A stretch of 64,000 nt of DNA, from assembly GCA_000934665.2 (NCBI GenBank), contig KZ537995.1, positions 1 through 64,000 on the forward strand, read 5' to 3'. This stretch comes from Catajapyx aquilonaris. Taxonomy: Eukaryota. Under the pieces are notes generated by a model, which was given only the letters and a program-made list of their open reading frames with translations, did no database searches and had not been told where the DNA came from. This document shows, one piece after another, positions 6,621 through 59,100 of this stretch; position 1 is the stretch's first letter, and every line of letters begins with the position of its first letter. Made by a program: the position numbers and the translations under genes.

Positions 6621-7380
6621 TCAGTCTGAATCATCTGAATGATCCTCTTCTTCTTCTTCTGCTTCCTCCAACCACTTGACGAATGGCTCCACCTGCTTCC
6701 TGACAGTGTTCCACCCATCTGGGTTGTCAGGAAGGGACTGATACCACTCCAGAATTCTGTCCTCAGAGAGAATGTTGTACTGGTATAAAAAGCGGATGAA
6801 CTTGGAGGACAAAGTGGCATTGCTGGTCACATCCGATGCACACCATTCCTGTTGTAAAATAAACAATCCGTAATAATGGTAATAATTATAAGTACAGCAG
6901 CCTCTTAATAACATTTTGACTTTTCTCAGTATGCAAGGAGAATAAGTCTTAAGAAAGATTGGCAATATATCAGAAAATGAATTTAATTATCCTAAGCAAG
7001 ACGTACATATGAAGTGACCCTAGCCTCAATGGCCACCTTCGTGAATCTGCACTTGCTGATGTAATTCATGAAGAATGCCTTGATGTTCGCAGGTGGTCCT
7101 TCATGGAATTATGGTGGTTTTGGACACAAAAGAAAATACTCCTGGACCCCAGCCACACACAGCCACTGAAGAGTGTGGTCCAATATCGGCGTGTTCAACA
7201 GCGGCAGAAGACACTGTCAAAATAATAATCAAGATTATGGCTGATGAAGCATATGGTCCACCTTATGCTACCAACCGTTGGCCTGTTGAGGACGAGCGGA
7301 CCGAACTTCCTGTTGAACGAGTCCGCCACGCTGACCGCCTGCAGCACGTCCTCCTTCTGGGCCAGTTGGGTCCCCATCAC
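6621..7380 (-). pseudogene. EIF2B5: Internally deleted eIF2B-epsilon pseudogene (N-terminal exons fused to W2 domain)
   Basis: EDVLQAVSVADSFNRKFGPLVLNRPT | intron | CLLPLLNTPILDHTLQWLCVAGVQE (frameshift) ...MKDHLRTS, jumping directly to KAFFMNYI..., then the last exon FLYQYNILSEDRILEWY...VEPFVKWLEEAEEEEED (W2 acidic box). Confidence 0.85.
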
Positions 7381-7950
7381 GGCTTATTTCTACCAAATCA
7401 AGTCAGATTTTGTCCACCAAAAAAAGGATCAGCTTGCATCAGAAGGGCGCCATCTTGGAATCAAGCATGGCCGACGAATGGTTCGAAATTATGACGACAG
7501 GTGGCTCTCGCTGCAGCCAAATACAGTATGGGACGAACAATACGGTAGCTTTGTACCCTTGTACCTCACATTAAAACTGAAAATAATGCATTTACAATTC
7601 CGACGGGCGAATCATCTGGAAATTTTAGCCACCTTTTTCGCATGAATTTTATTCTCAGCCATACCCCACAGAGGAAAATTGGCAGTGGCAATACACGGGC
7701 AACACCAATGAAACATTTTGCTTATTAGCATCAATATTATTGAGTTTAATCATTATTGCTTTGTAACTTTACTTGAAACAATATATCTTACCCTGATATA
7801 CTAATCAGGCACATGTTTCAGGCTATCTGGAAGATGTTTAGTATAACCAGCAGTATCAGCTAGTATTATACATTGGTACAGCGCATTTAAACATATTCAG
7901 GACCTATAGTTTATATTTGTACGATTTCAAGGCCGTGAAAAAATACTGGT

Positions 7951-8541
7951 TGTCAGACATTGGCCCACTCGATTAATTTATGGTTAGGTTAAAACTTATT
8001 TGTTAAGCGAAGTTTATCAGATTCATTTCAGCAGGTGACCCGACAATAATAATTAGCTATAAAGTTCGTGTAAAAATTTAGCAGTGTCAAGCACCTGAAT
8101 AGCTGGCTCTCCTCGCTCCTACAGTTGTTCACCCCTTCCGGCCCTTTTGTCTGAGGGCTTGCCTCGGTCAAACAATTGTAAGTTATGCGCTTGCGCGGCT
8201 TGGGTACCTGTGTCTGATCTTCCTCTTTCCTACAGCTGGCCAGGAACCGGGCCTTCTCGTGCAGCCGGACTACACAGACTCAGCAACTCCTCCACCGTTT
8301 TGGGGTCCGTTGGGGATAATTTTCTCTAATAAACCGGACCTCATCAGTCCCTTCATAATGTGCTTTATCTTTTCATCTTCGGGGAGGTGTAGATGGCCGA
8401 GATGGTAACGTCTCGGCTTGCTGAGTGAAAGGCCCCAGGTTCGATCCCCGCCTGGGGAACTTTCCTTTCACCTGCGTCAGGAGGGTCTCTGACCTGCACC
8501 AAGGAGGTGTCTGGCAACCTAACCTCCTGGGGAACAGCACA
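7951..8541 (+). mobile_element. LTR-like repeat containing a tRNA-derived Pol III module
   Basis: Starts TGTCAGA, AATAAA at ~8328, ends ...CAGCACA; A-box TGGCCGAGATGG (8394-8405) and B-box GGTTCGATCCC (8438-8448); no TSD found. Confidence 0.4.
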
Positions 8542-8699
8542 TGACCTATTTGTAGACATTGCACTTGCACCTATGTTCCCTCCCCAAAAATCCCTACCCT
8601 TACCCCATGTCCTTTCATCCTTGCACCGGAGTTGGAAGAAAAGTAGAAAATTGAAGGAAAATGGTGGTATTCCACTCCCCTATAAGGGCCTATGGCCCT

Positions 8700-9165
8700 A
8701 TCACGGGGTATATATAAAAAAAATAAAAAAATATCTTTTCATCTTCCCCCATGGTTCGGGAGATTGTCTGGCATAGGCCTAACACATCATAAAAATAATC
8801 TTCAACCGACTCTCCTGCTTGCTGTACCGGTACCCTATTCCTTAGGCGCACGGCCACTTCTTCAAACGCGACAGGCTTAAAAGGCTTCTTAATCTCCTTA
8901 CATAAATCAGCCCAGGTTATTTCCGGGACTGCCCCGTCAGTGCCTACATTTGCCTGCTTATGTTTGGCCTCATAGGCATTGTACCACTTCTGGGCGGTAC
9001 GTTCCAGAAAACAAGGCAAGTATTGGGCCTTCTGCTGGTCGTCCCAGCGCAGCGGTGGCAAATTGCAATACGCGTAAACTTTTGCAGGTAGCTCCGTATA
9101 TTTTCCTCGGGTCCCCCTGCAAATCGTCCCGGACCCATGTGGATCATTGGGGGAATTGTTGCCAC
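8700..9165 (-). pseudogene. gag: Ty3/Gypsy gag fragment (frameshifted, 3'-truncated)
   Basis: RFAGGPEENIRSYLQKFTRIAIC / WDDQQKAQYLPCFLERTAQKWY...TWADLCKEIKKPF...QQAGESVEDYFYDVLGLC is a typical retrotransposon capsid signature. Confidence 0.85.
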
Positions 9166-9292
9166 ATACTAGATACCTGACGCATCTAACGGGCCCCTCT
9201 CTTTCTGAGCTATTGATATTATCAGATTGTTGCTAATTTAGCCACAATAAGGGGGTACTTAGCTCAACAGCTTTGATTTGTACCAAAAATCC

Positions 9293-10001
9293 AGTCAGAG
9301 ATCGATCAGAACGAAGCAGGTTGTAAAATTAGTGCATAGACAACAACTTCCCATTCGATATAAGTTTGTTTATTGGTGCGGTCATGATTACAGCAACAGA
9401 CCCCAAAATACCCATAGAAAATAGACAAATTGGCAAGTCAGGCAGGCTACTTTGTTCAGGATAGAATTTAGAGAGCACTAATACTCACCCCAAATTATTG
9501 GGTTGTACATCCTGACTCGTTCAGGACTGATGGCGGGTCGTCTTCGTTGACTCTTGCTCCCCTCAGGACTCGACCCCCATGCCCACGAAAAGTAGGCTTT
9601 TATACCCCGCCTATCGCCGCCTATCGCGTCTTTTCAGAGAAGTCAGTGCCCCTTAAAGGTCACCTTGAGGTGATTAATTTACTAGAAAAGGCTATTTCCA
9701 GCTTGAGTCGTCATAGATAGGCCTAGTACACGGGCGTTACCACATAACTTATGACGTTTTTGAGTGGGCGAACCGGACCTTCTTAGTCACGAACTTCGGC
9801 AAATTATATGCCGCAAAATTCCCCACTTCTGCTAATAGGTGTGTTGCAATGGGACATCCGTTTAGTAAGGTCATTACTGACGCAAACGGAAAGTCCCACA
9901 TGAGTCACAAAAAATCCCTTTTTTCTCCTACATTGTTGCAGGCTGAGATAATACGCCATTAGTTTGAGCATACACCGTGATGCGGAGTCAATTATCTGAC
10001 A
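9293..10001 (-). repeat. 3' LTR (~700 bp; left boundary approximate)
   Basis: TGTCAGA start after the PPT; TATAAAA (~9597-9603), donor-like GGTGAGT (~9488), AATAAA (~9369-9374), TCTGAC end near 9294. Confidence 0.7.
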
Positions 10002-10480
10002 TCCCCCACCTAAGATTGCAAGGCGATGATAAACGACTTGCTGTGTCTGACCCCAGACACGCGTCATACCCATGCGAATTCTCGAGCCGGTATTTGCGAT
10101 TGTGCAAGGCCACTAAATCTGCCCATAACCAGTTGCAAACAGCTTTTTCTTTGCTCCCCTTACTCTACGTTCACAAGCACACAGACTTCTCCTTCAAAAC
10201 GCGCATTTACGTAAGCAAACACGTACATCAACAAAAAGTTAATTGCTCCTATCCTGCACGCCAACAAAACAAAAAGAATAAACGTTTCCACCCTGCACGA
10301 TATCGTGCCTCGCCTGATTACCAAAGAAGAAAAAAAAAGAAACCAGGAAATGTCTACCGTAACAAGAAGAAATTGTAGACTTGAGTGATAAAAATTAAAA
10401 AAAAAGATTGCATGACCCACATTTGCATCAAACAAGAAGATGTAAGCAAAACATTGTAATAAAAAAATGTATACACATGC

Positions 10481-10996
10481 TTGTTAAACATAACGGAACT
10501 CGATACGGCGCTAACAGCCACTCCCTTCATCTACGGACTCCCCACGAGCATCCAATCGACAATGGTCTTCATCTGGTTAGGGTCCCTGACAATTGCAATC
10601 GTGCTGTTGTGGTTAAAGCACCCAGAAATGCTATTTTTAGCACATGCGAGACCAATGTCTGCATTCGACACTACAATATTTAGCGACGCGTCACATCTCA
10701 TATTTTCCGTGTTTGTATTGGGAATAGGAGCGTATCTTCAGTGGAAGTTAATAAGTATTTGCAGAAAAATCTGGAGAATTGAGAGAACTCCAGAGGCCGC
10801 TCTGGACGCAGAGGAGGCCAGGTCGACCGAGTTGGGTCGAGTGTTAATCCCCAGATGTGACGAGGGAACTAGGTACGTCGAGCAAGAGGATCTGAGGATG
10901 GACCGAGGAATACCACGAGCCAGCCAACGGGGAAGCGCGCCTGATCAACGCCGACCGCCCCCTGGCAGGACGATGGCGGTCCTGGATTCAGACTAG
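10481..10996 (+). CDS. Antisense accessory ORF of the retroelement, two predicted TM helices and a basic/Pro-rich tail
   Basis: Hydrophobic segments MVFIWLGSLTIAIVLLWL and LIFSVFVLGIGAYLQW followed by RKIWR; lies between env and the 3' LTR. Confidence 0.45.
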   Translation: MLNITELDTALTATPFIYGLPTSIQSTMVFIWLGSLTIAIVLLWLKHPEMLFLAHARPMSAFDTTIFSDASHLIFSVFVLGIGAYLQWKLISICRKIWRIERTPEAALDAEEARSTELGRVLIPRCDEGTRYVEQEDLRMDRGIPRASQRGSAPDQRRPPPGRTMAVLDSD

Positions 10997-11838
10997 TCCT
11001 GGACCGGAGAAGCCCTCCTTGACCCGCAGATGCCCAGATCTGCGAACGGACGACGAACCGGCGAGTATAATGACTAATTGAATTTATGGAATTCCAGCGA
11101 AGAAAAAAAAGGAGTTAAAAGAGAGAGGTCTGCCACAACTCAAAAGGAGTAGTGAAGGATTACGCGTAATTGAGTAGCTCTTACGTAAGGCACAAGAATA
11201 CCGTTGAGAGAATCCGGCGTGCAATTATAGTCTAGACTAAAGGACACTCCAAATAATAAACGCATGCGTAATGTAAACGGAAATAGATAGGGTTAGGATA
11301 CCCTGCCAGGGGAAGCAGGAAGTTGGAGGTGTAATAAGGGGCACAGGCAGATAAGAGATAAGACCTGTTGTCCGGAAGTGCCACTACGTATACTAGGGTA
11401 ATACAGTATAATCTGGGAATCGGCCCTAAGGAATTAAAAAGGATCACGCATAAATTTTAGAGCGGCCATATACGCGCCAAATAACCATTGTTTGCAAGTT
11501 TTTAACAGAGTAGTCGCTGTATAGTTCACGGTTAGAGCCGTATGTAGAGCAGGCCCCGTATAACCAAACCATACCGGAAGTGGGTCTGATAGTACTGTAG
11601 TGATAAGTGGAGAGAGAGATATCAGGTCGAGAGAGAGGAGAGAATAAGCCGCGTAAACACTCGAAATAAGTACATAAATTAACAGGCGAGATGGGTTTCG
11701 AAAATGGAGGGGGACTAGAACAAAGAGTAAAGGAGCTTACCCTATGGGCGGGGACCAATTAGGATCCGTTCCGTATACGGGAGTCCCGGACACTCGTGTC
11801 GGCGGCAGTACTCCCTGAAGAGGGTGTACTCCTCCAGG

Positions 11839-12882
11839 CTATCGAACTCGCGGCGGATATGAGCCGTGAGGTGAGAGCCCCATCGGTCCGGGCGATTGGG
11901 GAGATGCGTACGGGCTAGGAGGGCATCGAGGAGCCGGACGCCGCCTGCGGGCAGCGCCCTGAACTATCGTCATCATTATAGCAGCCTCGGGATGTGGGTT
12001 GAGAACCAGGCCATTAAGGTCGAGATGAAGGAGATGGTCGGGGAAGCCGACAGGAGGGGGTTCCTCCTCGTTTGCGTTTTCGTCCAGGTCTGGGTCAGGA
12101 TGGTAGTCGAGGAAATCGACAGGGCCAAGAAGGGGGCCGTTAAGGTCTTCGTCCGGGTCCGGATGGTGGATAGGAAAGTCCTCATTTACGCCCTCGTCCG
12201 GGTAAAGATCGTCTTCCGGGTCAGGATAGTGGTTAGGGACATCAGCAGGACCCAGGACAAGGCGGGGTTCGCCTTCGTCCTGGTCAGGGATGTGAATGCC
12301 ATCATCTGCCGGAAAAGGGATGGACGGGGCGACGAATTGGGCAAAGATGGCTCGACCACTCCCAGGGGCACGCGAGTCGTCGGTGTCACTTTCATCGGCA
12401 TCAACGTCATCTCGATCCCGCGCCCCAGGGTAGACTTCGAAGTTTGGAGGGTAACCACAGAGGAGAGGTGGAAACGGATGACCCTCTGCCGCAGGGGGGA
12501 TGGAACTGTCCGAGTCCTCTAGTGGTGGTAGGTCGCCTAGGTCAGAATAAATGGAAATGTCCGAGTCCTCTAGTGGTGGTAGGTCGCCTAGGTCAGAAGT
12601 AGAGGAGATGTCCGGACTCTCTGTCCGCTCTTCCCGGTTGAGCCACCCGAAATGCTCCAAACAGAGATAGAGGAATACAAGAATACTTCCCACCATCCTA
12701 TAGCAGTAGGAAGCCCCTGGCGCGAACTTGGTAGAAAAGAGAAAAAAGGCCCTAGTTCTAGCACCTCTGATGAAAGAGAACTGATGGGATACCGAGAGAG
12801 GCCAGGAGGTATATAGGAAGTCACTCAAAAACGCCCCCCTCCGCCAAATCACTCTCGCTCTCCCCTCTCGAGACCACGGCAA
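11839..12882 (-). CDS. Accessory ORF, hydrophobic N-part and long acidic Pro/Asp-rich tail (may extend to ~13145 via frameshifts)
   Basis: 347-codon ORF; duplicated SDLGDLPPLEDSD (48-bp tandem at ~12507-12600); HHPDPDED-type repeats; upstream hydrophobic frames 12821-13145. Confidence 0.5.
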   Translation of the reverse strand: MPWSREGRARVIWRRGAFLSDFLYTSWPLSVSHQFSFIRGARTRAFFLFSTKFAPGASYCYRMVGSILVFLYLCLEHFGWLNREERTESPDISSTSDLGDLPPLEDSDISIYSDLGDLPPLEDSDSSIPPAAEGHPFPPLLCGYPPNFEVYPGARDRDDVDADESDTDDSRAPGSGRAIFAQFVAPSIPFPADDGIHIPDQDEGEPRLVLGPADVPNHYPDPEDDLYPDEGVNEDFPIHHPDPDEDLNGPLLGPVDFLDYHPDPDLDENANEEEPPPVGFPDHLLHLDLNGLVLNPHPEAAIMMTIVQGAARRRRPAPRCPPSPYASPQSPGPMGLSPHGSYPPRVR

Positions 12883-13266
12883 ATAGAGGAAAAAATAGTC
12901 CCACGCATAGAGTGGATGACTCAGTTACCCAGCTCAGCCAGCTAGGGTTACATAAGCTAAGCAGGAAAAGAGAAAAGAGGTAGTTGCATAAGGACAAGGA
13001 AAAGACAGGCAAACTGCGCAGCGAGTAGGACGAAAACAGGATGTGGGAAAAGAAACGTGTACCGCATAGTAATGGTCATTGAACTGAATAACGTCAAAAA
13101 GATAAAAAGGTCGATCCTAAAGGGCGACGGATATCCAATACGCACGGATATGAGTCCGGTTATGCACTCTGTAAGAGTGGGTCGGCATCAGGTGGTGGTC
13201 ACCAAAAGTAGTTCACGCCGCATTGCCATACCACATGGGGAAGCCTATAGGTAGGTCATTTAGGTC

Positions 13267-14035
13267 ATGAGGGCTAACTTGGTGGGATTACTGGTGTGGG
13301 CAGTGCTGGTGATTTGTTTGGTGGGAAACATATCCGCAATTCAGGTCGAAGTGAACAGTGGCCTTCGAATTGTCCCAGTAGGCGGCATATTGGCCTACAG
13401 CAGTGTCCTCCCCATTTTTTACACGATTCCCTTAGCAGAGATCAAGGGACCAGTCCCGGGAGCCCCCTGTAACTCTGAACACCAGTGCGTAGTAGATCTC
13501 GTAAGCCGCCTGTACGAGTCTCAACTGTACAAGGCTTTTCGGTTCAATCCGCAACCAGGAGCGAAGGTGAATCCGGATGAACTGCTTGCTAACGGTGCCA
13601 GTAGTCGGGATTTTTGTTGCTATCGTCCAAAGAGCCACCTACATTCCCTGTTTATAGCGGAAGAGGAATGGGAGGCCCTAAGCACACTTATTGGGAAAAA
13701 GAAAGCGAGCGAGAAATTCGTATATCGAACCCTGAATGTTAGTGCCTCAGAGGGCTCCTCACAAGGTCATTTGCCTCCACTTATTAAGAGTGTAACCCGT
13801 TTGCATTTGTTTCTCCTTCGCCATTATGCGATTGAGGCGTGTGCGAATGCCCGGATTCCGTATGCACTAATTTCACCAGAGCAGTTGTTGTCCGATTTAA
13901 AAGAAGTGGAGGTAGTCGCTCGTACTGTAGGGCTGGAACCGGTTCTATCAAAGAATCAAATAGGGGAATATTTCCGGTTGAAATTGGTTGAGTGTGCCGT
14001 AACTGCCAATCAGCTGGCAGTTATAATTAACCCTT
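13267..14035 (+). CDS. Second, antisense F-type envelope-like glycoprotein (env2), 3'-truncated
   Basis: Signal peptide MRANLVGLLVWAVLVICLVGNISA; SGLRIVPVGGILAYSSVLPIFY resembles the env1 N-terminus; AIEACANARIPYALISPEQLLSDL...YFRLKLVEC resembles the F-protein core; no RxxR site. Confidence 0.7.
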
Positions 14036-14565
14036 TCAAATCCTTGGTGGTTACTAAGCTGCAACGCGCAGCAAAAAGATCCCCCAGTAGGTCAATGCCC
14101 CGCTTCGAGCGTGTCTCAAATTCGGATTCCCTTATGGACTGGTACATGTCGAACTGCTGGGTGTGCACCTGGTGCTGCAGTTTCTTAATACCGTCCCACA
14201 TTCTGCACTCGTTTGCAGTTTCATTCCCATTACACCAGGCGTCTGGGATAGAGGTCAAAGTGGACAAATTACTCATTGGATCTGGCCATGGTGCCTGGTA
14301 CATTACTGTACGTCAAGGGAACGCTCCCTTCGTACGTAATCGTATTTTTGTGCAAGATCCAGTGTGCCCCTGCGGAAATCTTTACCTCGATTTCCCCTAC
14401 ATAATTTTCGGGTTCCCACTCACCATAGGATGCTAGGACCCATGGGACCCACGAGCACGCAATGACGGTCCCAACGGCTGAAATTAAAGAACAATTCCTG
14501 TCCAGCTTATTTACAAAGTACCCCTCACTCTCATTTCGGGGAAATACGTCTCTAAAATTAACCAT
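14030..14565 (-). pseudogene. env: F-type env (env1), frameshifted and truncated after the fusion peptide
   Basis: Hydrophobic signal-like segment, CNGNETANEC, furin site RSKR followed by fusion-peptide-like GIDLLGDLFAA; frameshift near 14303. Confidence 0.8.
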
Positions 14566-14774
14566 TGCTTATCCTATTTGTCACATTTCCCCTTTTCTCT
14601 CCAGGCCTGACTTGCCTGCTTACACCTCTTATCCTATTTCCGGTGTTTTGTTTACACTTCTTTTTCTCCTTATCGTTTACTCTTTCCTGCCAAGGCGGAC
14701 ACTGCTTTTTATGTCTGATACGGTTCTTGTTTTTCTCTGCGCAGTCATCCCCTTGGGTGCAGCTACAACTGGTG

Positions 14775-17700
14775 CTACTTTCTCCCGTCTTCGGGTTCAT
14801 CTACCTCATCCTGGTAGGTACACTTTTTTTCACGAAAAGCCGGTTTAAGTTTTTCTATGTGGACAGTTTCGACAACTACACGGCCACCGAGTTTTGGTAT
14901 CTCTGCTTTATATTTCAGAGGTGATAACCGTTCTAATATTCGGCCCGGTCCGTAAAAGTTGCGTAGCAGCTTCTCAGCTTTCCCCACTTTGCGTGTGGGT
15001 ATTTTCACAAAAACTTCCGCCCCTACTTTGTACTCATTATCGCGGCGGCCTAGGTCGAAGCGTACCGTTTGGTACTTTTGGCACACTCCTATCCTTTCTT
15101 TTGCTAGCTTTCGGGCCTCTCGCGCCTTATCATGCAGTAGAGTCGCGTCCACGTGTTCCGGGTCATACAAGACTGTGTCCGGAAACAATGTGGCCTCCTT
15201 TCCGTACACCAGATAATACGGACTCATTCGGGTAGTGGCCTGTACACTAGTGTTGTATGAGAATGCCAGGAGTGACAAATGAGTATCCCAGTCCTTTTGA
15301 TTGGTCGATACATAATGCGACACGTAATTTGCTGCTGTCTGCATAAAACGCTTAATCAAGCCATTTGCTTGTTGGTGATATGCCGCGGTCAATCTGTGCT
15401 CACATCCCGCCATTTTCAGAATCTGGCCAGTCAACCCTGATGTGAAATTTCTTCCTCTGTCGGAAGTCAGCAGCTGACGTGGGATACCGAATCTACAGAA
15501 GACATTCTCAACCAGGAAGCGCGCCGCAGTAATCGCAGAACAATCAGTTATGGCCTTAATCTCAATCCATTTACTAAGATACTCAATGGCCAAAATAGCG
15601 TAACAATTCCCACTATCGCTGCGTGGGAATTTTCCTAGTACATCCACCGCCCAGTGGTCACCAAAGTCTCCCACGACCACTGGTTCTAATAGTCCTTGGG
15701 GGTTTTGAGATAAGGGCTTCCTGGTCTGGCAGCTACGGCAAGCCGTTACGAAGGTCGTGACGTCGCTGCATAGCCCCTCCCAATAGTACCGGTCCTGTAT
15801 TTTATTCAAGGTCTTGACTATCCCCAAATGCCCTGCACTTGGTTCTGAATGGTTGACCTTGATCAGCTCGCGCCTCAATTCTTTCGGTATCACTAGTAAG
15901 AAGAGTCGCCCTCGTGGGCCGAAGCTCTTCCGGTGCAGTTTCCCTTCTTTTAGCACGAAACTGCGCGTCTGTCTTACTAGATGTCTGTTCGTTTCCTATC
16001 CCGGATCTTCGATCGCCCGGATTATCGCTCCTATTTGTGGATCCGCCCTTTGTAGAACCCCTACATCTGCGTCTGCTATAGCTATACACGTGATGTCGGC
16101 TATACTCTCGTCCTCTTCAGGGTCGAGAGGTCCGATGGGGTTTCGTGATAGGGTGTCACAATCGCTGTGCACTCGCCCAGGTCGGTGAATTATGCTAAAA
16201 TTTAGATCTTGGAGTTTCAGACTCCATCCAGATAGCCTTGCGGAATTGTCCGCAAATTTCTGAAGCCACAATAAACTGTGGTGATCGGTGACCACGACGA
16301 AATGTCTTCCCCAAATATACGGTCTAAACAGCTTAGTACTCCATACCACGCACAGGCATTCCAGTTCCGTGACCGTATAGCGCTTCTCGCTTCCGGTCAA
16401 GGATCTGGAGGCATAAGCCACCGGGTGGTCGGTCTTGTCCAGCTGTTCTTGCAGTAATACTGCCCCTAATGCTAATAGGGACGCATCCACGTGAATTTTG
16501 ACCTCTAGTTCCGGGTTGAAATGCATCAGCACCGGGGGAATGCACAGTTTTTCTTTTAAGGCTTCGAACGCATCATTCTGCTCGGGACCCCAAACAAAAG
16601 CTTCATCTTTTCTAGTAAGACGAGTTAGAGGACAGGCTATAGTCGCGAACCCTTCTACAAATTTCCTATAGAAGTTGGCCAGGCCCAAGAATGATCTCAC
16701 CCCTCTGAGATTTTTTGGGATTGGAAACTCGGAAACCGCCATCAGCTTATCGTCATCTGGTGCAATGCCCCTGGCAGACACTATGTGCCATAAAATTTTG
16801 ACCTGCCCATATCCAAAGGAACATTTCGAGGGTTTAATTTTGAGATTCACTTTCTTGAATCGTCGTCTAAATAGATGAGGGCCGTGTTCCATTTTAGGTC
16901 ACTTAATACGACTTCCATGACCCTTTCGAACTGGGCTGGAGCTCCGCAAAGGCCAAAGGGCATGACCTTAAACTGATAAAGACCTTCTGAGGTCACAAAC
17001 GCGGTTTTCTCGCGATCTTCCGGTTTCACCTTCAACTGCCAATAACCCGATTCCAAGTCCAGGGTAGTGAAGGAACTGGTCCCGTTGAGGGTCGCCAGTA
17101 AATCGTCAATTCGGGGCAACGGAAACTGGTCCTGTTTGGTTACTCGGTTAACTTTCCGGTAGTCCACGCAAAAGCGCCAGGCTCCGCATTTCTTTTTGAC
17201 AAGGACCACGGGAGATGCCCAGGGCGATACACTGGGTCCTATGACTCCCATTTTCAACATATCGGTGACCTGATCTCTTATCAGATCTCTCTCTGCGGGT
17301 GAGGTACTGTACGGTGCCTGCGATATGGGCAAACTGTCCCCTGTGTCTATCACACACTCGTGACCTGCTAGTTGACCCATTTGTAAGGGTTCAAATGCTA
17401 TACAGTCAGAAAAGTGTCGTAGTACTACTAATAATCGAAAAACGGGACTTTCCGCTATCGTCAGACAAGGCTGGCTCGTTTCCAGCGAATTTGGCCGGAA
17501 GCAACCCGCTTTTGGGTTCAACTTCCCGTAATTGGGTTGCGACCTAAACACCGGCGTGGGCCTCCCCTTTTCCAGATATCCCAATGTCGTACCAGCGTGT
17601 AACACGACTGGTTCATTCAAGAGATTCTCTAGGACGACGCACACGTCCGTTGTAGGGTCGGCTATAGGGGTGGTCATTAATCTGACCCCCTTTTTAAACA

Positions 17701-17800
17701 CTAATTCTTCACTGGCCACCGCATTGGCGGGCCATTCCCTTGTCTGACTCAACCTTGCCACGACCTTCTGTCGTTCTCGGCCTTGCACTCGCATTCCAAA
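14775..17800 (-). pseudogene. pol: Gypsy pol (RT, RNase H, integrase), disrupted
   Basis: RT SPWASPVVLV, LPRIDD, DLESGYWQ, MPFGL, YLDD followed by a deletion/frameshift; RNase H VDAS...ELE...TDH; IN HHCC zinc finger, D-D-E core with the E apparently changed to K (NGLIKR), GPG motif; break at ~15996; protease and gag missing from the 5' side. Confidence 0.95.
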
Positions 17801-17949
17801 CAATAAAATTATCTTGGTTACGTCATCATCATCCGCTCCGAGTGATAACTCACTCAACGCCGCCAGAGGACCATCTAGGGGCCTAATATAGCTAAACCGG
17901 GTCGTCACACGCTTTTGATTTAGGTAATAGGTCACGAAATGTCTAAACG

Positions 17950-18144
17950 TATGCCGCAAAATTCCCCACTTCTGCTAATAGGTGTGTTGCAATGGGACAT
18001 CCGTTTAGTAAGGTCATTACTGACGCAAACGGAAAGTCCCACATGAGTCACAAAAAATCCCTTTTTTCTCCTACATTGTTGCAGGTTGAGAAAATACGCC
18101 ATTAGTTTGAGCATACACCGTGTTGCGGAGTCAATTATCTGACA
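17950..18144 (-). repeat. Truncated 5' LTR
   Basis: 195 bp near-identical to 9807-10001; similarity is lost further inward. Confidence 0.85.
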
Positions 18145-18159
18145 ATATTGACGCTATGT

Positions 18160-18764
18160 ACAGTACATCCTTTTTCCGGCCAGAAAAATAACTGCAAGAT
18201 GTTTGAAATGACCACCTGACAATCACACAACAAGACTCCAAATATCTACCACACTTCCACAAAGAAACTATCATTAGGATGGCAGGTACTCCAAAAGCAA
18301 GGGAGTAACACGTATCGTCTTCATAGCACTTGACATCCTGCCTCAATATCGGAGTCAGAAATGCCGAGATGAGTAACCCTGCGTTGATCTAAAAGTAAAA
18401 GACGGCGAAGAAGCTCCGTAGTTGCTTCTGCTGCTCCGGAAGCTTGAATTGGTCCCCTCCAAAGGCCGACACGCATGGCCTGATTCCTCCTGTCCCAAGA
18501 GCTATCAGGGCAAGTCCCAGCATGGAGAAGGCAGTGGCTGGTAGCTTGAGAGGAGGAAGAGCCGCGACGCTGAGGACCACGCTGCCCAGAGCGTAGATTA
18601 TATGGAGACGTAAAAGAAGGTCCGGAACTTTCCCAGGAAGGAATCGGCCAGGAAGGCTCCCAGAAGAGGGGTGAAATAGCACAGCATGATGAACGAGTGG
18701 TATATCACTGTGGAGTCGTCCTCGGAGAAATTCAGCATCCCGTTCAGATACAGGACCAAGATCG
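18160..18764 (-). pseudogene. SLC15/PepT (POT family) oligopeptide transporter fragment
   Basis: AILVLYL...FTPLLGAFLADSFLGKFRT, GTGGIRPCVSAFGGDQF, FYF*INAG (premature TAG), 2-nt frameshift at ~18600, CYSLAFGVPAILM, IFLAGKRMY; truncated next to the LTR. Confidence 0.9.
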
Positions 18765-19400
18765 CTGTGGAGGGATCAAAATAATGGATTAATCTTTCTG
18801 GGGTGGATACCCCGCTCGCAGAGGTATGCTGTGCCAGTTAGTTACAGAAAATATAGAATATAGGAAAAAAAGTCTGGCTGCTGGTGCAGGATTGTAATGG
18901 TGAATATAGCGTAGGCCTACTCATTGTAAAACTGTAGTGCACAGGCTCGTTGCATTACAGGCGGGTTGGACACAATCACCGCAACAATTACGGTGCCTAC
19001 GCAGGATTTATGAGAACAAAATCACTAATATAAAATAATAGTCGCGTGGACTTTGTGGCAGACATTTTGACGCCTTTAATTTGAAAATGGAAACGCGTTA
19101 TGTTGATATAATAACACTAAAAATAGGCATTTTTATCCTGGAAAATTGTGTACGTTAGAGCATAATTTAGTCAAGCTTTGCTTGTCCACCTCCTAAAATA
19201 CGGTATATGTATATTTGTCCAAAAATGGTGCGTTTCGACATGAAACGAAAGTTAAAGGAAGGGTTCAGTGATTTTGCATGTTGAGCTCCAAAAATCAAAC
19301 ACGACTCCCTGATTTGAAATATCCGATCCGTTTTGTTGGCAAATGCACCATAAGCGTAAAATTTCAAGTCAAAGTTGACTTTTTTGAAAATCAGCGCCGA

Positions 19401-25874: not shown

Positions 25875-26137
25875 GGGGTCGTCCATAAATTACGTGGACA
25901 GGAAGGGGGGGAGGGGAGCCACAATACTATACGTATACAGCTCTTTTTTTAAAATTTGTAATTTAAAAAAATAATTATATGATTTATTGCCTGTGACAAG
26001 GCCGAAGAGGGGGGTGCCAGGTCGACTGTACATGTAAATAAAGGGGGGGGGGGGNGGGGGTACATGGATTGTATACAAGTGTCCATTTGGGGGGTAGAAA
26101 ATGGCGGGAAGTGTCCACGTAATTTATGGACGGCCCC
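25875..26137. mobile_element. PIF/Harbinger-type MITE
   Basis: 26-bp TIR GGGGTCGTCCATAAATTACGTGGACA / TGTCCACGTAATTTATGGACGGCCCC; TSD TTA. Confidence 0.88.
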
Positions 26138-45651: not shown

Positions 45652-48320
45652 TTATGGTATCCATGCCTTGCTGCTCGAGGATGATGTGCTTCCTCTCCTG
45701 TGGCTCAGTGATCCTTCGGACTTCGCATGTGACCTTTCCGGAGTCATAAGCAGCCGTGACAATGATCGGGAGTTGGGGTTTGACTTGCATTTTGCGTTGA
45801 AGGCCTCAGAGACTTCCTTGGATGGCTTAGCATCTTGGATCTTCTTCAGGAGCATCTGAGGAGACGACAGTAAAAAGAATCAGACACATAAATAAAATGA
45901 AGGCAAGTCAGTGTTTGGTACTTTCTTTGAGACATGCATGTAATGCCTCGATACGACGAGGGAGACTAAACGATGCTTTGCAGCATACTTGCAGCAATTA
46001 GTTACCAATCAAAATCTGAACTTGTTACAACCCAAAAGTCTAGGAAAAATTCATATGAACGAGAAAACAATTACGTGTTGCCTCATTCAGAGTTGTCCTC
46101 TTTGCACCCAAAATTGCAGAAAAAAAAGCAGAATACTGTGCAAAATAAGTAATTCTGCAACTGTTACGTACAATAGTATTTGTCCACAGCATGAAAAGCG
46201 TAAACAAATTATGACGTCTGTTACTGTTGAATTGGGAAATGAAAGGTCTGCAAGAAATTGTCAAATCTTTTTGCAGCTTTTTCCCATGTTCAAAATATTG
46301 ACTCAAACAGGTGCAAAAATGGAGTGTAATCTTCATAAGGTCACTTGCCTAGAGGAATGTTCAGCATATTTTAATTACTCTTACAACGAGTATGAAAACA
46401 CCTGAGGCTTTTTCACCTCCACGAGAGTACTGTAATCATGACCTTTTCCACCTTCACGCCAGAAGCACTTGAGAAAAGCTCTATTTCTGCCAAATCAATA
46501 TTTTGACTTTGTCGCGTCGGAACATTCCAGGATCCCATGAAACATGCAAAGCACATGCATTACCCATTGCTTTAATTAAATTTATGAGCAAAAAGTAAGT
46601 CTCAGAAACCATGACGCACACAATGACCCATTCACCGTGGGAATTGCTGCAGAAATCTGCTGTTGGCTTTATACCTTGGGATCGAGCCACATGTTGTGAT
46701 GAACATTCTGCGAATTCCTTGAACAAAGATGATCCGATACATCACAACATGACTGTTAGGTGACATCATGAATAGCACACGCAATATTCCGGATGTGACT
46801 CGATGCATCTAGTTCTTACACGTGCAATAAAATTTGGAGCAGAATCATATTACATAACACAAACATGCAGGGCTGGCAGCCAAACACACGTGGTGTTATG
46901 TAATATACAGACATGCCCAACAAAAGCACTACTTAGAAGTCGAGTTAATAGATTTGCACAACAATCCTATTCCGAAGTAGTACTTGAATCACTACACAAT
47001 GCATCCTATGAGCCATCGTGTGGTGAAACTCTGATGAATGAGTCACATCAAGTCATCCACCTACTAGGAATGACAAGTCATAAGATCTAAATATAAATGC
47101 TTGCAACAGGTGGGGGTAAAAGCATTGAGTGACATGCAATTCTTGTGATATGACACTGATTATTTTATCAGTTTACGTATTGAATCACTTGGGAAGGAAC
47201 AGGACATGCTATGTGATACTGCGCCACTTCCACAAGCGATAACACGCAGCAATAAATTTACGCCAAACTTTACCCTCGGTTTAAGGTTTCAACGGAAAGT
47301 GTCGTTCACATTACAGGTCATTAACATTTGTTGCAAGACATTGCTCTGGTAAAGATAATATTTACCTACACTGTTAAAGTCAGTGCCCTACGATTACGAT
47401 TAGACCTGCAAATCAATACAATTAGCGAAACAAACCAGATTCTCCTGCTGAATCCTTTTCTGCTGCTGCATCCTCCCGATGGCCGAGCTGGCCACCCGGA
47501 CACTCTTGGGCTTCCCGCCCTTCCCGTTCTTCACCCTGGGGCGCTTGTGCTCCATGATCTTCCGCAGCAGGATCTGGTTCTCACGGTCGATCTTCCTAAC
47601 CTGATCTGCAGTGAAGCTCATGTTGCGATGGAGGTGATGCGACTGGGGCCTCAGAGTCACCGTCATACTTCGCTGAGCCCTATCCTGTTCCAGCTCGTTC
47701 AACGCCTCTACCAGCAGCTTCATATCGGTTGCATGTGGCGGATCAACCGGTTTGGACTCCTGCATTGGTTCGGTACGCGGCCGAGGGAGGAACGGAAGGG
47801 GGCTGACACTCGCAGAGGACATTGGCGATACCTGGGTGATGTCCGAGTCCGATGTGAACGACTCGTCTTCATCCTCGTCGTCGCTGGACAGGCTATCCGA
47901 TATGGTGTCCGACTTGTCCGATGCACTGCTGGTTGTAGCACGAGGCTGATCGGTCAGGTCATCTATCACAAACAGCGGGTTATCCAGTTCTCTCATATGG
48001 TTGGTATGCTCCGAGAGGTGCTTGGGTATCGTACCGTTGTGTCCGGAATGTTCGGTCACACCGTTCTGCACTGGCTGATGCTTAGCGTCCGCACCGTACT
48101 GTCCATCGTAGCCACCTTCAGCACCCAGCACTTGCTCCCCTGCGCCGCACCGTGGTTCCACATCAGCTACCTTGGCCTTAACAGGACTGCAGTGCATGTC
48201 GTGCACAACATCCTGCTGCTGCTTCTGCTGCCCTTGGCTGGATTCAAAGAAGTCAAAGTCGACCTCACCGTGTATGTCGTGCTCATAGTGCGTGTCTCCA
48301 AGGCCCAGCTCCCTAGGCAT
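45652..48320 (-). CDS. CFAP97: CFAP97/KIAA1430-family protein (exons 48320-47436, 45855-45652)
   Basis: RNMSFTADQVRKIDRENQILLRKI...SSAIGRMQQQKRIQQENL|MLLKKIQDAKPS matches the CFAP97 domain. Confidence 0.85.
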
Positions 48321-48641
48321 CCTCAAGCAGCCCCAGGGCGGCCCCTAGTTTGCCCCCCTCCACCTTCTTCACATGCGGGACTCTCCCCCCGATCAGCTGT
48401 TCCCCCTGAAGTTAACAGAACAGAAGAGCCCTTCAAGGACGGACGCCATCAAAATCAGAAAAGAAGAAGGGACCGCCCACTTTTGAGGATCAGCCAAGCT
48501 CGCTCAGGGGCCCACCTCGGAATGACGACCGCCAATCAGGAGCGAGAGAAACGGAGGGGAACGGTCCGGTCCGTTTCTGGGTCGAAAGGGAAGGTGTCAT
48601 TTGTCATTTAAATCATTTAAATGACGAGTGACGTTCACCAG

Positions 48642-56100: not shown

Positions 56101-59100
56101 ATGGACGGGACCAAACCTTCCTTGGGCAACTCTGGATTCGGCGCATTCACATTCTTCGCATCGCTTCACCCAGGGGAAGTGTGCGGAAGCAACGGACTTC
56201 CCTTGACGCCCAACTCCGTCAAAATACTTGGGAGAGCGCAAGAGCTAAAGACGATCGTACATCCTAACCTGTGTACATACGTGGATGTCATTAGAGGCAA
56301 ACATGGTTCGTACATGTACATGCCTTTTGATAGTCTCAGCTTAACGTGGCGCGTTTTATTTTCCAGAGCAATTGAAGGTGGTGTGCGAGTACTACGGACG
56401 TACCCTGAGAGCAGCTTGGGGTCAAGGCGAGTTCAGGGAGGCGTCTGAAGCCGTGAGCGTCGCTAACCAGTGCCTGAAAGCCCTCGCTTTTCTGAACAAC
56501 AGGTATCTGGTGGTCGCCAGAAATATTTGCCCTGAGAACGTACAAGTCGCAGGAGACGGAGGGACTGTGAAGCTGTTCAATTACGGGATGTACTACGTCA
56601 CGGATGGCGGCAGAGACATCACTTTTCCCATCGGGTTGGTACAGTATGGAATTTACAGAAGTACAGAAAAGTACAGAAAATAACGGATATACAGAAAAGT
56701 ACGGAGAGTAACGGATATACAGAAAAGTACGGAGAGTAACGCATATACAGAAAAGTACGATCAAACCGAATATATTCAGAATCTGCGACTATTGCATTGT
56801 TACGTAGAGATTCGACTTATTATCATTTTGGTTTTTTTGCATCTATTGCAGACATCCGAAATATCTTCCTCCTGAAGTGTACCTTTCCGAGTGTGTGGAT
56901 TCGTCTCCGCCTGATGATGCGAGTGTGGATGTGTGGTCTTTAGGTCTGATGGTGCTAGAACTAGTTCTTGGAACTACGCTTTGGGAGGACCTTAAGCTGA
57001 TTCAAGTGATACGGAAGGTCATTAGCCTTATTCACTGCCAGTCTGTTATTGATCGGATTGCGCTGGAGCACAACTGCACGCAGACGCTGCAGGTGATTGT
57101 AAATTCACTGTGTTTTAAAGCTGTCGACGTCAATGTTTTTTTTTAAAACATTACAGTCGCTACCAGAGTCTCTCCGTGATTTCCTCTCCAAATGTTTGAC
57201 TGTGATGCCGACTGCCAGACCAGATCCGGCCGACCTTCTGGGACATCCGGTGTTCCTAGAGTTTGAAATAGACACTGATGCATCGATACCGGATCCGGGT
57301 GCGAACTATTTTTTGGGAACACATCCACGATCCAAGGGTTTAACGATTGAAAGCCTAAGGGCAATGAGCTGGAACGGAAGCAATGTTGGTGGATCCGGGC
57401 CTACGACCTTAACAGATTCGGACCATATGAGCGAGAGAGGGATGAAAGAGGTGTACCATATCTGGCAACTGGCTGGCGGTGATGTGGACTCAGCTTTGAA
57501 GACGCAAGAAATGGTCCGATTCAAACCGCCAGTACTGTCCATACCAAAGTATGTCCACATGAATGATACGTTACTTATTGGTAATAATTGTGTGTTATCC
57601 GACAGCATGATGTTACTCGAGGGTAAGACGTTCGGGCAGCGTAAGGACTGCGCTCTTCTATGGAATCCGACCGTAGTGACCCTTCCGCTGCAAGAACTCC
57701 GCAAACGCTTAAGCCACATACCGCCTGAATCGTACTACCCATTAATATTGGAACAGGAGGAACCAGAGTCGCCGCAGGAAGCTTCAGTGACCGAGTCGCT
57801 ACCACTGGTTATCCGAGAGAGGGATATTGAGTATCAGTTCCATCGGGTGGTACTCTTTGAGAGGCTGCTCAAAGGATATCCGTTTACGAGAGCGCAGATT
57901 ATTAGGGAGGCTCGGAAGGACGTACCGCCACTGTACAGAGCACAGGTATGTACGCGAGTCACATTTTGTCCTGACGTAACCAGAGTGTTTCCGATTAGGT
58001 TTGGGCTGCCTTGCTTGAACTTGAAGGTAATATTGTCGGCCGGTACAGTTCTGTGGATAAGGAAACGCCGTGTCCGACCGATCGGCAGATAGAAGTGGAC
58101 ATACCTCGCTGCCATCAGTACGACGAGCTTCTGTCATCCCCGTCTGGTCATGCGAAGTTCAAGCGTGTGTTGAAAGCGTGGGTCGTCAGCCATCCAGGTT
58201 ACGTGTATTGGCAAGGGTTGGATTCCCTCTGTGCCCCTTTCCTGTACCTGAACTTCAACAGAGAGGACTTGGCGTACGCGTGTCTCAGTGCATTTGTGCC
58301 CAAATATCTACATGGGTTTTTCCTCAAGGACAACTCTGCGGTCATACAAGAGTATCTCGTTACATTCTCGCATCTCGTGGCGTTTCATGATGCTCAGCTC
58401 ACTAATCATCTTGACGACATCGGGTTCATACCGGAGCTGTACGCAATACCGTGGTTTCTAACGATGTTTTCACGTAAGTCGCTTCGATCCGGATTTTAGA
58501 TTCTTGAATGATTCGTTGCTTTACAGATGTGTTTCCGCTGCACAAAATATTTCATCTGTGGGACAAGCTGCTTCTTGGCGACTCCTCGTTTCCGTTGTGC
58601 GTCGGACTGGCCATCCTTATGCAGCTGAGAGACACCTTGCTGTCATCTGGGTTCAACGAGTGTATCCTTCTATTCTCGGACATGCCTGAAGTGGATATTG
58701 AGCGTTGCGTCAAAGACTCGGTGGAAATATTCTGCAGCACTCCCAAGAGCGTCACGTACAGACAGCACCAGTTGCAAGTTAAGAAGAAAGGTCGAAGCAA
58801 GGAAAAGACCACCTCCGTTGATCTGGCAAGTCCATATTAATACTCAAACAGTGTAATTATTAATATGAAAATATTTATTCCCGCAATTTTAGGGAATGGA
58901 TCCGATTTCGCTGTCGGATTTGAAATCTGAAAAGTGTCCTCGGATAAGTGCAGAGGACATGCTGGACCTTCTGGATCTTCAACATGTAAAATTTTCAAAG
59001 CCAAAAGCTATGGTCGTGGACATCCGCGGAGCTGATGATTACGCACGTGGAACAATTCCGACGGCCATCAACGTTCCTCTCGACTCCGGAGAAGATCCGC

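Follow-up and report, generated by a model that had tools for sequence, protein, structure and literature searches.

Tail-to-tail fragments of two F-type envelope genes beside a broken Ty3/gypsy pol in Catajapyx aquilonaris, probably a rearranged relic of an errantivirus-like element

The window analysed here, i.e. the 64,000 nt of contig KZ537995.1 from Catajapyx aquilonaris that begin at its position 1, contains a broken retroelement flanked by two host exons on the minus strand, one belonging to a POT-family transporter (18260-18775) and the other encoding a W2 domain (6624-6986), both recognized with Pfam. The pol region of a Ty3/gypsy element runs along the minus strand from 17974 to 14775, with the Pfam families RVT_1, RT_RNaseH_2, Integrase_H2C2, rve and SH3_Tf2-1 in the order typical of gypsy. 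It consists of three parts: a 5'-truncated reverse transcriptase ORF (16847..17974; RVT_1, E = 1.2e-20), an RNase H region (15996..16898; RT_RNaseH_2, E = 7.4e-35) and an integrase portion (14775..15995) with zinc-binding, core and SH3-like domains (Integrase_H2C2, 8.7e-21; rve, 1e-8; SH3_Tf2-1, 1.4e-7). Reading of the frames placed a frameshift directly past the YLDD motif, splitting the reverse transcriptase ORF from RNase H, and an in-frame TAG (15996-15998) that closes the RNase H region and stands between it and the integrase. Some 210 nt separate the integrase stop from the first methionine (14565) of an envelope gene fragment on the same strand, env1, and this fragment in turn meets a second one, env2, which lies antisense to the pol and env1 of the same element.

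A 195-nt direct repeat, D1, is present in two minus-strand copies that are 98.5% identical, copy A at 9807..10001 and copy B at 17950..18144. The repeat reads TGTCAG...GCGGCATA on the minus strand and so has TG..CA ends, and its edges are sharp, with zero similarity between the copies outside the 195 nt. Copy B is complete and pol follows it immediately, a primer-binding site, gag and protease all being absent, and Pfam likewise detected no gag or protease family between this copy and the reverse transcriptase. A purine run on the minus strand, AGGTGGGGGA (10002-10011), adjoins copy A. By reading, neither a matching target-site duplication of 4-6 nt nor a TGG-type primer-binding site was seen at the D1 copies, and a tRNA scan of the window returned no genes, so that none was available for comparison with a primer-binding site; a search of Rfam over 7500-19000 gave no matches. 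The only gag match in the window ORFs (8693..9232, minus strand; Retrotrans_gag, E = 1.5e-5; Pfam) is located beyond D1 copy A, about 575 nt past it on the same strand, and is cut by a repeat of very high copy number at about 8500-8710, as judged from contig depth sums. Above the cut-offs, the Pfam search of 111 ORFs of at least 45 aa yielded only W2, this Retrotrans_gag and two PTR2 matches. The D1 repeats look like LTRs, but the element is internally deleted and either permuted or tandem.

Between D1 copy A and env2 lies a block of 3.2 kb (10002..13266) that is characterized mainly by its composition. Purines predominate on the plus strand between about 10200 and 13400, a strand bias opposite to that of the pol region, and a 51-nt tandem repeat occupies 12500-12614. 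No Pfam family was found in the ORFs of at least 45 aa of this block, and a relaxed tblastn of reverse transcriptase, RNase H and integrase against 7000-13300 revealed no pol remnant upstream of env2 (best E = 0.94 among the matches listed). The block also holds several ATGs upstream of env2 and a TATA-like TATATAGG on the plus strand (12810-12817), about 450 nt ahead of the env2 start. An ORF of 361 aa on the minus strand (11842-12924) was considered as a gene and rejected: it has no Pfam family and, since stop codons are few in the pyrimidine-rich strand, it was read as a by-product of that strand and of the 51-nt tandem repeat.

The env1 fragment (14031..14565, minus strand) represents about 175 N-terminal codons of what appears to be an F-type envelope gene, and is interrupted by one frameshift near 14285-14295, so that its two pieces are read from different frames (14568-14269 and 14312-14010). 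By reading, the methionine at 14565 is followed by a lead of 25 residues and then by a hydrophobic, signal-like stretch. Past the frameshift come CNGNETANEC and then RSKR followed by GIDLLGDLFAARCS. In the family alignment described below, this region (RSKR/GIDLLGDLFAA, the slash marking the cleavage place) corresponds to a furin-type basic site and a fusion peptide, and env1 is broken off directly past them, at about residue 145 of homologues that are roughly 600 aa long. The gypsy pol context, the CNGNETANEC motif, the RSKR site with its fusion peptide and the other env1 features all lie where a first, sequence-only reading of this DNA had located them.

The same reading had proposed a second envelope gene with a signal peptide on the opposite strand, and this proposal is confirmed by env2 (13267..14031, plus strand), the first 255 codons of a second and divergent envelope gene that again appears to be of the F type. 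It starts at the plus-strand ATG at 13267 with the sequence MRANLVGLLVWAVLVICLVGNISA, in which a signal peptide is recognizable by reading; the signal region forms a helix (residues 3-18) in the predicted model. The frame remains open for 255 codons up to the junction with env1, beyond which it continues only as the antisense of env1, up to 14436. Its motifs include a CC pair at residues 117-118 and a C192...RIP...C243 core, and it breaks off at a point equivalent to about residue 290-310 of its homologues. Neither fragment thus retains a C-terminal half or a membrane anchor, and in the six-frame ORFs of the window nothing significant matched the C-terminal half of the envelope, past position 304 of the family profile. 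Three plus-strand ORFs within 10215-10993 were compared with the family alignment and gave E-values of 0.29, 0.58 and 0.34, which are not significant, their order being roughly colinear. In the ESM Atlas the best scores were 0.85 for both env2 and an ORF at 10463-10993, and these are to be taken as leads only.

The two fragments meet at a single junction (14025..14031), as had been suggested for about position 14030. The tblastn alignments of two homologues of env2 (P0001 and P0003) end at 14028, and codon reading on both strands places the break at 14028 ± 3. The homology of env1 and that of env2 therefore end within the same few bases, i.e. the genes are fused tail to tail without filler. 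One contig, covering 12569-14200 with no differences, bridges the junction in all three DNA runs that contain the locus, extends 1460 and 170 nt past its two sides, and has depths (35.1, 28.1 and 21.8) in line with those of its neighbours; the three runs derive from a single sample, possibly the source of the assembly itself. The env1/env2 junction is not an assembly join.

Assignment of the two fragments to a protein family required intermediates. Pfam gave no family at E ≤ 0.1 for env2, and hence no direct match to Baculo_F, and none at the same threshold for either of the two env1 pieces. An exhaustive phmmer search with env2 of 1.84 billion cluster representatives returned four proteins at E ≤ 1e-3 (4.7e-5 to 3.9e-4), all of them 580-668 aa long, and none at E ≤ 1e-10, i.e. 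no orthologue or close relative. A source name is attached to five of the seven cluster members, four of which are listed as 'Envelope protein' from a psyllid and the fifth, from a different psyllid, as a hypothetical protein. Two of the four homologues are colinear with env2 from the signal peptide to position 14028 (tblastn, E = 5.9e-9 and 1.3e-11). The link to a named family passes through the homologue P0002, which env2 matches by phmmer (5.6e-5, against 1.84 billion proteins) and by BLASTP (E = 2e-13); P0002 and P0004 are encoded on genomic contigs of 7.4-7.6 kb. P0002 is in turn related (E = 2.2e-23) to protein P0008, which lies above the Pfam threshold for Baculo_F (PF12259; E = 2.4e-10; 40.1 bits, the cut-off being 24.1), whereas env2 and P0008 compared directly fall below significance. 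A profile of six homologues searched over the six-frame ORFs of the window detected env2 (E = 5e-18; profile positions 10-54 and 216-304) as well as both pieces of env1 (piece a, E = 3.7e-5, positions 22-54; piece b, E = 5e-4, positions 96-147), so that env1 and env2 match one profile of insect envelope proteins of about 600 aa at colinear positions. As this shared profile is linked to Pfam Baculo_F via one intermediate, both fragments can be classed as F-type, and by these comparisons they would be the N-terminal parts of envelope proteins of one broad family.

Compared with each other, env1 and env2 show little. BLASTP gave E = 0.13 for one env1 piece, in a non-colinear alignment, and no alignment at all for the second; the lack of pairwise significance marks them as distant relatives rather than recent duplicates. 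The colinear similarity that the sequence-only reading had seen between them is therefore recovered through the six-homologue profile but is not above chance pairwise, and its description of the two as F-type paralogs stands as far as membership of one F-type family goes, the two not being close relatives of each other. Structural comparison contributed little. The predicted model of env2 is poor (mean pLDDT 54.2) and had no Foldseek match at E ≤ 0.001; the best match of this poor model was a granulovirus F protein (1.1e-3, TM 0.39), and 11 of its top 24 matches carry the name of an F or fusion protein from baculoviruses or from paramyxo- or pneumoviruses. For homologue P0002 the predicted model is of similarly low quality (pLDDT 52.3), but it yielded 39 Foldseek matches at E ≤ 1e-3, headed by glycoproteins of chu-related viruses and with four baculovirus F/Ld130 proteins (3.3e-11 to 1.7e-8) among them. 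A sequence-profile search of the PDB gave no matches at E ≤ 1, and a word-index protein search allowing longer lengths retained none out of 3308 candidates for env2 and none out of 20 for env1 piece b.

The absence of a furin-type site from env2, also part of the earlier proposal, is clear, with not one R-x-x-R in its 255 residues. In the family alignment, the homologues display a cleavage place followed by a G-x4-G-x4-W segment and then by an invariant CC pair, and the cleavage place carries R-x-x-R in env1 and in four of five homologues, the fifth (P0001) having KQKR. In env2 this place is occupied by NPDE/LLANGASSRDF-CC, so that both the basic site and the conserved G-x4-G-x4-W pattern are missing. 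The mean Kyte-Doolittle value of the 11 residues before the CC pair is 0.05 in env2, compared with -0.07 to 0.54 in the five homologues and 1.32 in env1. Since env2 falls within the range of the homologues, what it has lost is the motif and the cleavage site and not hydrophobicity as such, and the claim that it lacks a hydrophobic fusion peptide holds for the motif but not for the hydrophobicity. The distance from the CC pair to the next cysteine is 74 residues in env2 and 105-116 in all eight homologues, i.e. env2 is 31-42 residues shorter in this heptad-repeat stretch, from which class I fusion proteins build their central coiled coil. The spacing from C192 to C243 (51 residues) is identical in seven of the eight homologues. 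We infer that env2 was non-fusogenic already before its truncation; in their present state, neither env1 nor env2 would be functional as an envelope protein.

Further copies were sought among contigs of one sample at ≥ 85% identity and in collections with few animal genomes, a search by which more divergent copies are missed. Over 13063-13764 the contig depths add up to no more than the depth of the bridging contig alone in all three runs (35.1, 28.1 and 21.8), which, contig depth not being copy number, means that no second contig matches env2 on this interval. The same equality holds on 14467-15168, so no second contig matches the end of the integrase or the spacer that precedes env1. Two other bins, 13765-14466, which includes part of env1, and 11659-13062, do have additional matching contigs at ≥ 85% identity. 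In viral contigs no related locus was found via P0002 and the integrase, and tblastn of nine proteins of the element against the window gave self-matches only. The sole metagenome-contig locus for env2 (L001) was judged spurious, its match being 29 residues long and its ORFs resembling neither an envelope gene nor a retroelement. A run from another sample under the same species label (X5) covers six of 30 bins, with nothing from pol or from either envelope fragment; a contig of this run follows the window over 18260-18764 and diverges from it at 18163, its 30 loose letters being absent from the window.

The errantiviruses (Drosophila gypsy, ZAM and Idefix, and metazoan elements) are among the known systems closest to the locus. 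They share the order of reverse transcriptase, RNase H and integrase, have a sense env with signal peptide, furin site and fusion peptide directly past the integrase, and end in short direct repeats with TG..CA ends, as here. The locus differs from them in that no gag or protease precedes pol, pol and env1 are broken, env1 has only about a quarter of the full length, and a second env fragment lies antisense. The main text of a survey of metazoan errantiviruses (Chary & Hayashi, eLife 2026, PMC13524379) describes only the layouts GAG-POL-ENV and GAG-ENV-POL, makes no mention there of an antisense or paired env, and describes F-type ENV as highly conserved at its furin site and fusion peptide. 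Plant LTR retrotransposons with an antisense ORF between pol and the 3' LTR offer a parallel for the layout, but these ORFs are conserved over many copies and apparently are not envelope paralogs (PMC7264820, PMC11963269), whereas here there is one broken copy.

The interpretation that we prefer, with a probability of roughly 0.65, is that the locus is a dead, rearranged mosaic relic of an env-carrying, errantivirus-like Ty3/gypsy element. A gypsy-like element whose ordinary sense env became truncated would have been joined to a fragment of another env-bearing sequence in opposite orientation; this second sequence may have lain or landed inverted, a deletion then taking the 3' halves of both genes. 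The juxtaposition of env1 and env2 would thus be the product of local rearrangement, at a locus that bears other scars of this kind: pol has a frameshift and a TAG and no gag or protease, env1 has its own frameshift, a complete D1 stands beside pol, and the gag lies past the other D1. The sequence-only reading itself had named a case that would speak against its proposal, an inverted piece of some unrelated element present in this copy alone, and this case is favoured here, short of proof. Several observations pull the other way. A single deletion between convergent genes is the most economical origin of the junction, any route through nested insertion taking two events or more. Were env2 derived from an ordinary errantivirus, a plus-strand pol should precede it, and there is none within 3.2 kb. 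env2 also lies between the D1 copies, and if these are the LTRs of one insertion, it either travelled along or arrived afterwards. The open frame of env2 is weak evidence against a mosaic: three disabling lesions fall within the roughly 3.7 kb of pol and env1, a rate at which only about 0.6 would be expected in env2, where none is seen. Two other rearrangements were considered and rejected. An inversion of 10002-14028 would leave the continuation of env1 on the plus strand at the other breakpoint, where no significant C-terminal part of an env was found, and a fold-back duplication is excluded because its two arms, env1 and env2, are different sequences.

Three other explanations have to be set against the mosaic relic. 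The proposal with which the analysis began, that the family natively carries a sense, fusogenic env and a convergent antisense, uncleavable paralog driven from a separate promoter towards the 3' end of the element, one deletion of about 2.3 kb or more having taken both 3' halves, appears very improbable. Some retroviruses carry antisense genes with their own promoter in the 3' part, and an antisense env could counter superinfection as a decoy or interference factor, or could assist the fusogenic Env in attachment. Such a design would account for the one clean junction that both frames enter, for the start codon, signal peptide and open frame of env2, for its position between the D1 copies, for the TATA-like motif on its strand and for a plus-strand purine bias common to the whole block from 10200 to 14030, and the loss of the furin site with the cysteine framework kept looks like constraint rather than plain decay. 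As a statement about the family, however, it has only the juxtaposition in its favour: this copy is broken and otherwise rearranged, no second example came to light (further contigs match part of env1 but none matches env2), related loci were lacking in the viral and metagenome collections, the main text of the errantivirus survey (PMC13524379) shows no such layout, env1 and env2 are not close relatives, and the 3.2 kb from env2 to the repeat hold no recognizable gene and several upstream ATGs. If true, this would be the first such retroelement to have a pair of envelope genes and to carry a gene on the antisense strand. As it stands, the locus shows that gene fragments lying tail to tail in DNA rich in transposons should not be taken for a gene pair before the same layout is seen in a second copy.

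Less improbable, though still unlikely, is that env2 is the remnant of an independent env-derived unit, either a domesticated host gene comparable to Iris of Drosophila or an endogenous viral element with an F-like glycoprotein, alongside which a deletion brought the gypsy fragment. This would agree with the separate start and signal peptide of env2 and the absence of pol upstream, with the bridging contig being the only one that matches it, with losses that are the same as those of Iris in the passages describing that gene (PMC1262188), and with the structural neighbours of P0002, which include glycoproteins of chu-, arli- and lispi-like RNA viruses besides baculovirus F. It sits poorly with the position of env2 between D1 copies that resemble the LTRs of one family, with the lack of a plus-strand C-terminal half beyond the element, with the failure to find an orthologue or close relative among 1.84 billion cluster representatives, and with the nature of its four relatives, which are proteins of about 600 aa called Envelope protein where they are named. 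That the inverted junction is a chimeric join made in the library or the assembly is hardly credible. Inverted joins are a common kind of chimera, and the runs containing the locus share one sample that may be the assembly's source, but a contig free of differences spans the junction in each of the three runs at a depth like that of its neighbours, and the sequences on its two sides differ, as they would not in a fold-back of one sequence.

Under the preferred reading of the locus as a mosaic relic, what mild interest it retains lies in env2 and its missing furin site. Baculovirus F proteins (PF12259) belong to the same family as env1 and env2 by the chain of sequence matches, are structural neighbours of the P0002 model and include non-cleaved members; they differ from the present fragments in that neither env1 nor env2 reaches Pfam Baculo_F directly, and in being encoded by genes of large DNA viruses, not by retroelements. 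Ac23 is a baculovirus F homologue of the kind with a degenerated furin site. Baculoviral F genes with such a degenerated site are noted in the passages on Iris (CG4715) in Malik & Henikoff (2005, PMC1262188), the Drosophila gene that env2 resembles in its lost cleavage site and fusion features. As characterized in those passages, Iris is a host gene of full length that includes a membrane anchor and whose orthologues are under positive selection, whereas env2 is a stump of 255 codons with no anchor and no known orthologue, situated between putative LTRs. Since env2 lacks a cleavage site and keeps the cysteine framework, as Iris does, uncleaved and presumably non-fusogenic F homologues may arise repeatedly in animals. 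The F-type envelope family of gypsy-like elements is sampled so sparsely that only four of 1.84 billion cluster representatives match env2, which extends this family by a divergent member.

The stretch of transposon sequence that holds the relic, a broken and rearranged Ty3/gypsy-like element, is bordered by host exons on either side, with POT/PTR2 peptide-transporter exons on one flank (18260–18775, minus strand; E = 2.6e-20 and 4.6e-9) and a W2 domain exon of the eIF5/eIF2B-epsilon type on the other (6624–6986, minus strand; E = 5.7e-19). Because host exons lie at both flanks, the relic sits in or between host genes and its surroundings are not pure repeat desert. Host exons elsewhere in the window encode a RabGAP-TBC domain (57999–58496, plus strand; E = 4.9e-29) and Hemingway/CFAP97 (47403–48344, minus strand; E = 2.1e-8). 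The whole window contains a single N, at position 26055.

A short repeat of very high copy occupies 8500–8710 and cuts off the gag fragment (a Retrotrans_gag match at 8693–9232, minus strand). Summed contig depth on it, which is not a copy number, came to 61 800–112 408 across the main sample's three runs, compared with approximately 20–38 alongside. This repeat looks SINE-like because of its many loose ends and A-rich tails.

On the plus strand, 10278–10355 and 10571–10630 resembled, in roughly colinear order, the F-type envelope family's C-terminal part and membrane anchor, but not significantly (hhalign E = 0.29 and 0.34). If real, they would represent a third env fragment, which would further favour a scrambled mosaic.

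Upstream of env2, the second F-type envelope gene, a tandem repeat at 12500–12614 (2.2 copies of a 51-nt unit, 92% matches) falls within a pyrimidine-rich, minus-strand open frame of 361 codons. This frame, acidic and proline-rich in composition, matched no Pfam family and is probably not a gene. The sequence TATATAGG, a candidate promoter element, occurs at 12810–12817, about 450 nt 5′ of the env2 ATG (13267) and on the same strand (plus), with several ATGs between it and the env2 start.
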